This document shows, one piece after another, positions 9,144 through 12,100 of a DNA stretch of 32,000 bases (positions are counted from its first letter, which is position 1; each line of letters begins with the position of its first letter). Under the pieces are notes generated by a model, which was given only the letters and a program-made list of their open reading frames with translations, ran no database searches and was not told where the DNA came from. The position numbers and the translations under genes are program-made. Source of the DNA: Candidatus Electrothrix yaqonensis (GTDB lineage: Bacteria; Desulfobacterota; Desulfobulbia; Desulfobulbales; Desulfobulbaceae); assembly GCA_047651235.1 (NCBI GenBank), contig CP178758.1, forward strand, positions 1,920,001 to 1,952,000, written 5' to 3'.

Positions 9144-12100
9144 ATGATATGTAGGCACTTATCCTTTCTTTTAACTGCAGCAGCGGTCTTGTTCTCGCTG
9201 ACAGCGGCCGGTGTTCAAGCCGCTGAAGACAGCTGTAATATAGATATGGAGGAGATCCGGGTGTATAACCGGGGGACCGATCCTCCCGGGGAGATGATAC
9301 GACCGTACATCACTCTCCGCAACATGGGGGAGAAGGAGATTGATCTGTCACGCCTGACAATTCGATATTACTACACGGATGACGGCGGCACCCAGCCTTA
9401 TACAGCCACTAACGACATTTTTCAGATCAACAGAAAGTCTGCTGATCTGTCTAAAATGTCAGTCAATATTCAGAAATCTTTTATAGACGTTACGTTTGAT
9501 CCCTCGCTTCCGGTAATAGACAAGGGGAAGGACGGCGGAAGACTGAAGATTCAGTATCACGTTCAGACTGCCAAACAGGAAGTCTGGGATAAAACTAACG
9601 ATTACTCGTTCCGGGAAGGCGGATGGGAGGAGGATGGTAAAATTGTCGTGTACTGCGACGGCAATAAAGTGTCCGGCAATGAACCGCCTTCGGACGGCAC
9701 TCCCTCATGCGAGGACGGTGTCAAAAACGGTGATGAAACCGGGATCGACTGCGGCGGCTTGTGCCCGGAATGTGAACCGTCAACATGCGGAGACGGCATC
9801 CTGAACGGCGATGAGACCGGGATCGACTGCGGCGGGTCATGTTCTGCCGCATGTCAGGCCGCCTGCGACGATGGCATTCAGAATGGCGATGAAACCGGGA
9901 TCGACTGCGGCGGATCATGCCCTGCTGTATGTCAGGCCGCCTGCGATGATGGTATTTTAAACGGCGATGAAACAGATATCGACTGCGGCGGCTCGTGTCC
10001 GGCATGCCCTTCCTGCGATGACGGCGTTCAGAACGGCGATGAAACCGGGATCGATTGCGGCGGTTTATGTGAGGAATGTCCCCCTTCCTGCGACGACGGC
10101 GTACAGAATGGTAAAGAGACCGGTATCGACTGCGGCGGGTCATGCCCTGCCTGCCCGACATGTAAAGACGGGATAAAAAACGGCGATGAGACCGGCGTTG
10201 ACTGCGGCGGCTCATGTCCGGAATGTAGACCTTCATGCGAGGACGGTGTTCAGAACGGCGATGAGACCGGTGTTGACTGCGGCGGTTCATGTCCGGAATG
10301 TAAACCTTCATGCGAGGACGGCGTCAAAAACGGCGATGAGACCGGTGTTGACTGCGGCGGCTCATGTCCGGAATGTAAACCTTCCTGTGATGACGGAATT
10401 CAGAACGGCGATGAGACCAGTATCGACTGCGGCGGTTCCTGTCCTGCCTGCCCGACATGTAAAGACGGGGTGCAGAACGGTGACGAGACCGGGATCGACT
10501 GCGGCGGTTCATGCCCTGCCTGCCCGACATGTAAAGACGGGATAAAAAACGGCGACGAGACCGGTATCGACTGCGGCGGCTCATGTCCGGCCTGCCCGAC
10601 ATGTAAGGACGGCATCAAGAACGGTGACGAGACCGGTGTTGACTGTGGTGGTTCCTGTCCGGCCTGCCCGACATGTAAAGACGGGGTGCAGAACGGCGAT
10701 GAGGCGGGTATCGATTGCGGCGGTTCCTGTCCTGCCTGCCCGACATGCAAAGACGGCATCAAGAACGGTGATGAAACCGGTGTTGACTGTGGCGGTTCCT
10801 GCCCGGCATGTGCATCTTGTTCCGACGGCGTGAAGAACGGTGACGAGACCGGCGTGGACTGCGGCGGCTCATGTCCGGCCTGCCCGACATGTAAAGACGG
10901 GATAAAGAACGGCGACGAGACCGGCATAGACTGCGGCGGCTCATGCCCAGCTTGCCCGACATGTAAAGACGGGGTGCAGAACGGCGATGAAACCGGTGTT
11001 GATTGCGGCGGCTCATGTCCCACCTGCCCGACATGTTCCGACGGAGTGCAGAACGGCGATGAAACCGGTGTTGACTGCGGCGGATCCTGTCCGGCATGTC
11101 CCACATGCGAGGACGGCGTCAAGAACGGCGACGAGACCGGCGTTGACTGCGGCGGCTCATGCCCCACCGACTGCGGCGGCGATTCGTCCTGTTCGGACGG
11201 GGTGCAGAATGGCGACGAGACTGGAGTGGACTGCGGCGGATCCTGTCCGGCATGTCCCACATGCGAGGACGGCATAAAGAACGGCGATGAAACTGATGTT
11301 GACTGCGGCGGTTCGTGCCCTGCCTGCGCCTCCTGTTCCGACGGCGTGAAGAACGGCGATGAAACCGGTGTTGACTGCGGCGGATCCTGTCCGGCATGTC
11401 CCACATGCGAGGACGGCGTCAAGAACGGCGATGAAACCGACGTTGACTGCGGCGGCTCATGCCCTGCCTGCGCCTCCTGTTCCGACGGCGTGAAGAACGG
11501 CGATGAGACGGATGTTGACTGTGGCGGTTCCTGTCCGGCATGTCCCACATGCGAGGACGGCCTCAAGAACGGTGATGAGACCGGCGTTGACTGCGGCGGT
11601 TCCTGCCCGGCATGCGCCTCCTGTTCCGACGGCGTGAAGAACGGTGACGAGACCGGCGTTGACTGCGGTGGTTCCTGCCCGGCATGCGCATCCTGTTCCG
11701 ACGGAGTCAAGAACGGAGATGAAACCGGCGTTGACTGCGGCGGTTCATGCCCGGCCTGCGCATCCTGCTCCGACGGCGTGAAGAACGGTGACGAGACCGG
11801 CGTGGACTGCGGCGGTTCCTGCCCGGCATGCGCCTCCTGTTCCGACGGAGTAAAGAACGGTGATGAAACCGGCGTGGACTGCGGCGGTTCCTGCCCGGCA
11901 TGCTTGGGATTGGCTGGCGCAATCTTCATCGATAATCAGCTGACTGCAACCTGCTCCGGAAATTACAGTATTGCCAACCGGAACTGCTCCGGTAATGACG
12001 GGAATGCATATACGAACATCACCGAGGCAATCAAGACGCTTACTGACGGTGCCGGAGGGACAGTCGCCATCAGAGGCGGGACATATACCCAGGAAGTGCG

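Follow-up and report, generated by a model that had tools for sequence, protein, structure and literature searches.

In the cable bacterium Candidatus Electrothrix yaqonensis YB6, one open reading frame encodes a predicted exported protein in which 30 tandem cysteine-rich units separate a carbohydrate-binding module from a right-handed beta-helix. The gene lies in a stretch of 32,000 nucleotides (contig CP178758.1, positions 1,920,001 to 1,952,000 of the forward strand; hereafter the window, in which all coordinates are given), and the repeats were first picked out in a prediction made from the sequence alone. The array consists of in-frame coding copies of an autonomous four-cysteine module and occupies the linker position between the binding module and the beta-helix. 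Block duplication and recombination between units gave rise to it, and purifying selection equal to that acting on the enzyme domain maintains it. Taken as a whole, the reading that we consider probable is that of an old, block-duplicated, recombined and selectively kept four-cysteine array, most likely serving as a disulfide-stapled spacer. Its evolution is then of the textbook kind: block duplication, inter-unit recombination, and purifying selection while silent sites drift. Old arrays of tandem domains ordinarily look like this, and unrelated members of the repeat family show the same pattern.

Layout of the protein and of its repeat unit

The protein has the following parts:

9144..13217, plus strand: open reading frame of 1357 codons (1357 aa), in the order signal peptide, CBM3, 30 Cys-rich units, right-handed beta-helix (from the list of open reading frames, the translation and Pfam)
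9144..9221, plus strand: predicted Sec signal peptide
9255..9689 (residues 38-182), plus strand: family-3 carbohydrate-binding module (CBM3)
9708..11903, plus strand: array of 30 tandem units of 22-28 aa, mode 24 aa = 72 bp (regular-expression parse and Tandem Repeats Finder)
11904..13214 (residues 921-1357), plus strand: C-terminal right-handed parallel beta-helix, polysaccharide lyase/hydrolase-like (Pfam Beta_helix and NosD)

The signal peptide is a by-eye reading of the translation, with a hydrophobic core and a V-Q-A site (...AAGVQA before the predicted cut, AED after it). The CBM3 assignment is firmer: Pfam CBM_3 (PF00942, E = 1.1e-8) scores 35.8 bits against a gathering cut-off of 22.4, which places the region in the family, and solved CBM3 structures align with it over their full length of ~145 residues each (6d5b, E = 2e-14; 1nbc from CipA, E = 3.8e-10; also 4jo5). 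The fold of the C-terminal domain is likewise assigned by Beta_helix (PF13229), at 70.8 bits against a cut-off of 25.9. Pel9A-like_beta_helix (PF22842) is a precomputed annotation on homologues of this domain, not on the YB6 protein itself, and the sole match among PDB sequences is a weak one to the tailspike 4ru4 (E = 0.005). No database record of the exact array protein was found.

Splitting the translation at every C.DG..NG gives 30 consecutive in-frame units between 9708 and 11903. Their consensus is C.DG..NGDETG.DCGGSC..C, or more fully C-x-D-G-(V/I)-(K/Q)-N-G-D-E-T-G-(V/I)-D-C-G-G-S-C-P-A-C, and the family motif C-x-D-G-x2-N-G-x-E-x3-D-C-G-G-x-C-x2-C is matched by every one of them. Every unit without exception contains four cysteines, which makes 120 in the 732 aa of the array (16%), and 11 of the 22 core columns are invariant (C1, D3, G4, N7, G8, E10, D14, C15, G16, G17 and C19). 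Most units, unit 4 among them, are 24 aa long; the exceptions are units 1-3 (26 aa), units 5 and 7-9 (25 aa), unit 20 (28 aa) and the last (22 aa). Tandem Repeats Finder detects the array independently, with a score of 1467 at period 72 and a higher one, 1628, at period 144. The array limits and the starts of unit 20 and units 27-29 come out of the translation parse at the same coordinates as in the original prediction. Its remark that a 72-bp period keeps any copy-number change in frame is true but trivial, and carries no information. The array does not have the character of a phase-variable or contingency locus: every unit length is a multiple of 3, and the units, of which no two share one DNA sequence, average ~78% identity in pairwise comparison.

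Two antisense open reading frames lie within the array (9721-10311, minus strand, 196 aa; 10400-11929, minus strand, 509 aa) and translate to repeats of their own. As genes they were rejected, being stop-free by-products of the repeat composition.

Block duplication, recombination and peptide constraint

Along the array the units form blocks, and two perfect repeats connect distant parts of it:

9708..10160, plus strand: units 1-6, the most diverged; mostly GIDCGG; 24-26 aa linkers
10161..10385, plus strand: units 7-9, CPEC(R/K)PS subfamily, 25 aa; 5 nt separate units 8 and 9
10386..11033, plus strand: units 10-18, mostly CKDG...PACPT, with exceptions at units 10, 15, 16 and 18
11034..11621, plus strand: units 19-26, a 144-bp two-unit higher-order repeat in which CSDG..PACPT alternates with CEDG..PACAS (Tandem Repeats Finder period 144)
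11106..11189, plus strand: unit 20, irregular, 28 aa; GACTGCGGCGGC at 11145-11156 is repeated at 11169-11180, adding 12 nt in frame
11622..11903, plus strand: units 27-30, four peptide-identical CSDG...PACAS units 3-9 synonymous nt apart; closest pairs 27/29 and 28/30
11050..11131 = 11350..11431, plus strand: longest perfect intra-array repeat, 82 nt, units 19/20 versus 23/24
10140..10186 = 10509..10555, plus strand: 47-nt perfect repeat; position 10186 is also where an independent short-read contig of this genome stops

The arrangement in contiguous subfamilies had been proposed from the letters alone, and part of that proposal stands: the CPEC(R/K)PS group of units 7-9 is real, the borders are roughly right, and positional clustering is significant. 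Other parts do not. Unit 4, which had been grouped with the longer linkers of units 1-5, has a normal one; the CKDG...PACPT type assigned to units 10-18 is broken by unit 10 (CDDG), unit 15 (ending in PACAS), unit 16 (CSDG) and unit 18 (PTCPT); and the alternation described for units 19-30 holds only for units 19-26, not for units 27-30. Clustering was measured by Mantel tests of unit distance against separation (r = 0.40 for nucleotides, p = 1e-4; 0.35 for amino acids; 0.22 for synonymous differences only; all p <= 5e-4). In a neighbour-joining tree the units group as {8, 9, 1, 5, 4}, {2, 3, 6, 10}, {7, 12, 17, 11, 14, 18}, {13, 15, 26}, {16, 27-30}, {19, 23, 25, 21} and {20, 24, 22}. Within units 19-30, units two or four apart differ on average by 7.6 and 8.3 nt, respectively, and those one or three apart by 12.9 and 13.0 nt, so that this part of the array is a two-unit higher-order repeat. 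The local tandem expansion that had been suggested is thus supported by the Mantel tests, by the tree clusters of neighbouring units, by the 144-bp period in units 19-30 and by the 82-nt perfect tract between units four apart.

Unit 20 had been taken for a recombination scar. It is irregular, and the scar is genuine and in frame: the second copy of GACTGCGGCGGC lies 24 nt after the first, and the tail reads P-T-D-C-G-G-D-S-S where the norm has P-A-C-A-S, with the count of four cysteines intact. As to its cause, out-of-register recombination and slippage fit alike.

The history of the array is mosaic and not purely tree-like. The pairwise homoplasy index test for recombination is significant (p = 0.001-0.03, depending on the set of units and the window size), and many pairs of units are identical over one half and diverged over the other, such as 16 and 27 or 19 and 21. 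Perfect tracts were compared with a null of 200 shuffles, in which synonymous codons were exchanged among units within each column and the protein was held fixed. The longest observed tract is 82 nt, versus 37 +/- 5.5 nt after shuffling; there are 23 tracts of at least 30 nt versus 3.3 +/- 1.9, and seven of at least 40 nt versus 0.3, and none of the 200 shuffles reaches any of the observed values. Silent variants are therefore linked in blocks, as a history of duplication predicts, and are not dispersed.

Most of the duplications are old. None of the 30 units is an exact DNA copy of another: even the 18 pairs that encode identical peptides are 3-9 nt apart (mean 7.1). Codon usage in the other genes of the window predicts a synonymous codon heterozygosity of 0.57 at conserved residues; the observed mean is 0.42, about three quarters of saturation. 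Taken from each unit to the one most similar to it in the array, the proportion of synonymous differences (pS) has a median of 0.33. This exceeds the 0.24 found between the flanking domain of YB6 and that of the closest relative known; a partner closer than 0.24 exists for units 19, 20, 23, 24, 26, 27 and 29 only. From this it follows that a few duplications, in the 3' third of the array, are younger, and that most copies are, as first suspected, not very recent.

Purifying selection on the peptide was quantified over all 435 unit pairs of the 22-codon core, which gave pS = 0.66 and a proportion of non-synonymous differences (pN) of 0.098 (pN/pS = 0.15). Because pairwise counts re-count inherited changes, events were also counted on the tree: Fitch parsimony on the neighbour-joining tree of the units finds 136.5 synonymous and 49.5 non-synonymous events (omega ~0.10), and a lower bound from state counts finds 45 versus 21 (omega 0.13). 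Binomial tests against the neutral site ratio give p = 8e-50 for the parsimony events and p = 1e-15 for the state-count bound. Third positions vary in 22 of 22 codons, first positions in 10 and second positions in 7, with diversities of 0.47 versus 0.13 and 0.07, respectively; this concentration at third positions identifies the plus frame as the coding frame. The strong peptide constraint that had been proposed is borne out by these figures, and non-synonymous changes are far rarer than synonymous ones across the whole array.

The same comparison for the beta-helix domain, between YB6 and a metagenomic relative that is 92-94% identical, gives pS 0.24, pN 0.027 and a ratio of 0.11. The constraint on the array is strong but unexceptional, equal to that on the adjacent beta-helix domain; this equality and the mosaic history are points absent from the original prediction. 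It had rightly noted that units 27, 28 and 29 (starting at 11622, 11694 and 11766) encode an identical 24-aa peptide and differ at 8 nt (27 versus 28) and 4 nt (27 versus 29, of which 3 lie in the 22-codon core and 1 in the linker). That all these differences are synonymous is a tautology given identical peptides, and the array-wide ratio is the informative figure. Synonymous-only differences are accounted for by age and ordinary protein-level selection, with no special mechanism.

A sequence of events consistent with these observations would begin with growth by duplication of one-, two- and four-unit blocks through unequal recombination. Later recombination or gene conversion between units would have turned the array into a mosaic. 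A long residence would then have brought silent sites to about three quarters of the codon-usage equilibrium, with purifying selection (omega ~0.1) keeping the peptide nearly unchanged.

Copy number in cable bacteria and spread of the repeat family

Electrothrix homologues of the protein have a beta-helix 53-94% identical to that of YB6, and the units, where present, sit at the same junction directly N-terminal to it. Their N-terminal modules are two PPC domains instead of CBM3, and they have 0, 1 or at least 2 units versus 30 in YB6. The ATG1 protein (P0245) has two PPC domains, exactly one unit with four cysteines, and then the beta-helix, which shows the module to be autonomous and in a linker position. 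In AR4, one protein (P0243) has two PPC domains and no unit, and the contig of the other (P0242; QYKT01000435.1, L008 1-130) starts inside an array; a 1-nt frameshift comes next and then 'ACPDVC...IIVDNQ', which makes at least two units. The metagenomic relative used above (P0241, from JGI sample 3300036936) lies on a contig that begins ~45 nt downstream of the array. Both contigs being partial, P0242 yields a lower bound on copy number and P0241 yields no count. The presence of units at the same junction in ATG1 and AR4 makes the unit ancestral in the genus, with copy numbers of 0, 1, at least 2 and 30 among the homologues. Those of ATG1 and AR4 are 17-28 of 66 nt distant from every YB6 unit, and the YB6 units differ from each other by ~14.5 on average (range 2-23), which fits expansion, homogenisation or both within the YB6 lineage. 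A scan with the C-terminal domain of one genome per GTDB species and of JGI metagenome contigs found no full-length orthologue, only relatives of 25-30% identity.

At the AR4 locus with the partial array, the 1-nt frameshift falls in a G6 run and interrupts one of the repeat units; with the contig start inside the array, this makes the annotated 430-aa protein a truncated call. A PMT_2 glycosyltransferase gene follows it.

Beyond the cable bacteria the unit belongs to a widespread repeat. A search with the full-length protein returned 3,762 matches, the best being Bacteroidota proteins of the type IX secretion system (T9SS) with 62-77% identity over the repeat part. With a three-unit profile, 7,522 cluster representatives (clusters at 50% identity) out of 1.84 billion match at E <= 1e-3; at E <= 1e-30 there are 665. 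The family spans Bacteroidota, Myxococcota, archaea and eukaryotes, and most matches are cargo of the Bacteroidota T9SS: metalloproteases of the reprolysin-like and M43 types, phosphatases and FN3 proteins. Within the 120 best matches, a protein has a median of 12 core motifs, with a maximum of 38. The known profile libraries have no model for it: Pfam gives no family at E <= 10 on the 732-aa array (and noise only, E > 2, on a 72-aa sub-array), including Disintegrin, DUF4215 (Myxococcus Cys-rich repeat), Notch LNR, LDLa, EGF and TSP3; NCBIfam has no match on the array, and neither library matches the long-form relatives described below. PDB searches by sequence and by profile returned noise only (RNF4 RING, E = 0.0085 and 0.07). 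A literature search for the motif strings found no relevant paper, and one for cable bacteria with cysteine-rich repeats had no match. With ~7,500 clusters, no Pfam or NCBIfam model and no solved structure, the unit is a candidate for family curation and structure determination.

The closest likeness is to arrays in Bacteroidota T9SS proteins, among them a reprolysin-like protease (P0001), a Chitinophagales protein (P0002) and M43 proteases of Saprospiraceae, which share the motif C.DG.QNG.ETG.DCGG.C..C, four cysteines per unit, a 72-75-bp period, an inter-domain place, silent differences between peptide-identical units and a pN/pS of 0.07-0.21. There the arrays stand between the catalytic domains (reprolysin-like, M43) and the T9SS tail. 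The partners differ: metalloproteases, phosphatases and FN3 with Por_Secre_tail, against CBM3 and a beta-helix without T9SS tail in YB6. The first two of these, which are unrelated arrays, have a pN/pS of 0.21 and 0.07, longest perfect repeats of 275 and 176 nt, and 8 and 14 DNA-identical unit pairs; with identical units and perfect repeats of 176-275 nt, versus 82 nt in YB6, the Bacteroidota arrays are younger at the DNA level. A long form of ~40-45 aa, in Myxococcota and related proteins (P0006, P0074, P0087) and in an archaeal protein (P0053), has the YB6 motif as its first half and differs by an extra Cys-rich half, ..GK.C....DC.SG.C..G.C. Two of the Myxococcota-type proteins (P0074, P0087) also have a CBM_3, C-terminal to the array and not N-terminal as in YB6. 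In all relatives listed, whether Bacteroidota, long-form or eukaryotic, the units lie between other domains. Adineta rotifers (P0075, P0080) and a protist transcriptome (P0061) have 19-30 copies of a divergent motif, which in the protist alternates with Notch LNR.

Short units with paired cysteines and an invariant cluster of D, N and E, used as spacers beside metalloproteases, resemble the small Ca2+-binding modules of extracellular proteins: LDL-receptor class A, Notch LNR, thrombospondin type 3, the CGNG..E.GEECD start of disintegrins and the 'Myxococcus cysteine-rich repeat'. On the available evidence (no Pfam or NCBIfam match, no PDB sequence relative) the YB6 array is not a member of these disulfide-rich families. 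Another comparison is with the stalks of Gram-positive surface proteins (the B-repeats of SasG/Aap, Rib/alpha-C), which are in-frame tandem domains that set length and change in copy number by recombination. Their repeats are typically near-identical in DNA, being recent or homogenised, in contrast with the YB6 units at ~78% identity and near-saturated silent sites.

Alternative explanations, possible role and neighbouring genes

The original prediction had offered, beside the age of the copies, that they are selected against perfect DNA identity. In that case silent differences would be selected, or survivorship-filtered, since identical tandem units are unstable. The lack of DNA-identical units, the 3-9 nt between peptide-identical pairs, and a longest perfect tract that is shorter than those of the two Bacteroidota arrays would all agree with such avoidance of recombination. 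The synonymous shuffles nevertheless gave tracts that are fewer and shorter than the observed ones, and on this test selection against DNA identity was rejected. RecA-dependent recombination in E. coli has a minimum of roughly 25 bp, and the seven tracts of at least 40 nt that persist are well above it. The related arrays, moreover, tolerate DNA-identical units and long perfect repeats. We regard recombination avoidance as unlikely, though a weak survivorship filter on identical units may operate.

A recent horizontal gain of a ready-made array from Bacteroidota, in place of expansion within Electrothrix, is suggested by the full-length matches, the best of which are T9SS proteins, and by the failure of the GTDB and JGI scan to return a full-length orthologue. 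High identity across phyla is however expected of a motif with half of its core positions invariant, ATG1 and AR4 already have units at the same junction, and the YB6 units are closer to each other than to those Electrothrix outgroup units. The GC content at third codon positions (GC3) of the array is 0.64, within the 0.41-0.68 of neighbouring genes, and its excess of GC is at codon positions 1 and 2 and comes from amino-acid composition; a foreign origin on grounds of composition was rejected. Transfer is accordingly an improbable source of the array. It is still harder to credit that copy number or silent differences were made by Flye, Racon or Pilon, which we consider very unlikely. The closed YB6 genome was built from Oxford Nanopore reads of at least 10 kb and polished with Racon and Pilon, with 150-bp reads for the latter, and its description reports difficulties in polishing (PMC12093952); short-read assemblies, too, break at the array. 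Reads of that length each span the 2.2-kb array, though, the 4-kb open reading frame has no frameshift, and the differences are overwhelmingly at third codon positions, unlike errors. An independent short-read contig from Logan (SRR31704081) is 100% identical over 6051 nt (4136-10186 of the window), including units 1-6. It stops in unit 7, at the end of the 47-nt perfect repeat, which shows why short-read assemblies never span these arrays. Hardly any credence is due to the idea that the 120 cysteines are thiol or metal ligands (for Ni or Fe-S, for example) or redox centres of cable-bacterial conduction, not disulfides. It draws on the 16% cysteine content and on the sulfur-ligated Ni cofactor of the conductive fibres (PMC12093952). 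Against it, the same unit occurs mainly in non-conductive bacteria (in extracellular proteases and secreted proteins), in archaea and in eukaryotes; cable bacteria with 0, 1 or at least 2 units show that the array is no conserved part of the conduction machinery; and the strict count of four cysteines per unit in an exported location fits paired disulfides.

Several points weigh against the picture of an old, selectively kept spacer. The structural models are too poor to bear on disulfide pairing, Ca2+ binding and rigidity: AlphaFold2 reached a mean predicted local distance difference test score of 32 for five units with an 11-sequence self-alignment, and of 40 for three units with 31 diverse sequences, and neither model is usable. 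The stability of copy number and the timing of expansion depend on a molecular-clock comparison with a single relative, and no orthologous full-length array was recovered. Pilon polishing of the repeat with short reads could have changed individual sites. Silent diversity is very uneven between columns: in columns 3, 7, 11 and 14-16 the codons GAC, AAC, ACC and GAC-TGC-GGC are nearly fixed, the GAC TGC GGC of 'DCG' in 27-28 of 30 units, with neighbouring Gly and Cys codons at codon-usage equilibrium. When the three arrays are compared column by column, their silent diversities show no correlation (Spearman -0.02, -0.26 and -0.16), and a universal constraint on particular silent sites was rejected since the pattern is absent from the two Bacteroidota arrays; as it does not recur there, the unevenness is probably due to founder and duplication effects. 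Lastly, Sec export is itself predicted, and the one hint at a route past the periplasm is borderline, a choice-of-anchor Q hit at the C-terminal end (NCBIfam choice_anch_Q scores 25 bits, its cut-off being 25): scans of the whole protein with Pfam and NCBIfam found no Por_Secre_tail (PF18962), the mark of T9SS cargo, and the host is a Desulfobulbaceae cable bacterium.

Each unit most likely contains two disulfides, and the invariant D3, N7, D9, E10 and D14 may bind Ca2+. The protein would be exported by Sec. The most likely role of the array is that of a long spacer, semi-rigid and resistant to proteases, which would keep the catalytic domain at a distance from the CBM3 anchor; the beta-helix probably acts on an extracellular or envelope polysaccharide. 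YB6 is distinguished by an abundant extracellular sheath of nanofibres, described as of unknown composition and biogenesis (PMC12093952). A link between the array protein and this sheath is speculative. A bolder proposal, to which we give only a small chance, is that the unit is an undescribed autonomous two-disulfide mini-domain, whose 30-fold expansion in YB6 would form a stalk tens of nm long, tethering the beta-helix enzyme to a CBM3-bound sheath glycan. The protein, with its CBM3, stalk and beta-helix, is a concrete candidate to test against the unexplained sheath. Copy number at one junction ranges from 0 to 30 among cable-bacterial homologues.

The neighbourhood contains a second large right-handed beta-helix protein 5 kb away (18206-21250, minus strand, 1014 aa), with PKD and 'Disaggregatase related' domains; it has only 24% identity to the beta-helix of the array protein, and the two are putative polysaccharide-active proteins in the same neighbourhood. 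Directly downstream of the array gene, and convergent with it, is a RACo-type corrinoid-protein reductive activator (ASKHA; 13292-14989, minus strand), whose open reading frame is 30 codons longer than the NCBI protein (535 aa), the annotated start being different. An IS630-type transposase helix-turn-helix fragment (16331-16657, plus strand) is followed by a stretch of low GC content (0.40; 17001-18156) and an open reading frame without Pfam match (17698-18156); lying between lptG and the second beta-helix gene, the region probably represents the remnant of an insertion sequence. Upstream of the array gene are two DUF2207-type membrane proteins (3296-4324 and 5120-6466, both minus strand), both with long glycine-rich tails (e.g. 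GGGGSGGGGGGGGGG), and a pair of adjacent paralogous open reading frames (662-1339 and 1361-2020, both minus strand), for which Pfam gives AIM24 on 662-1339 only.

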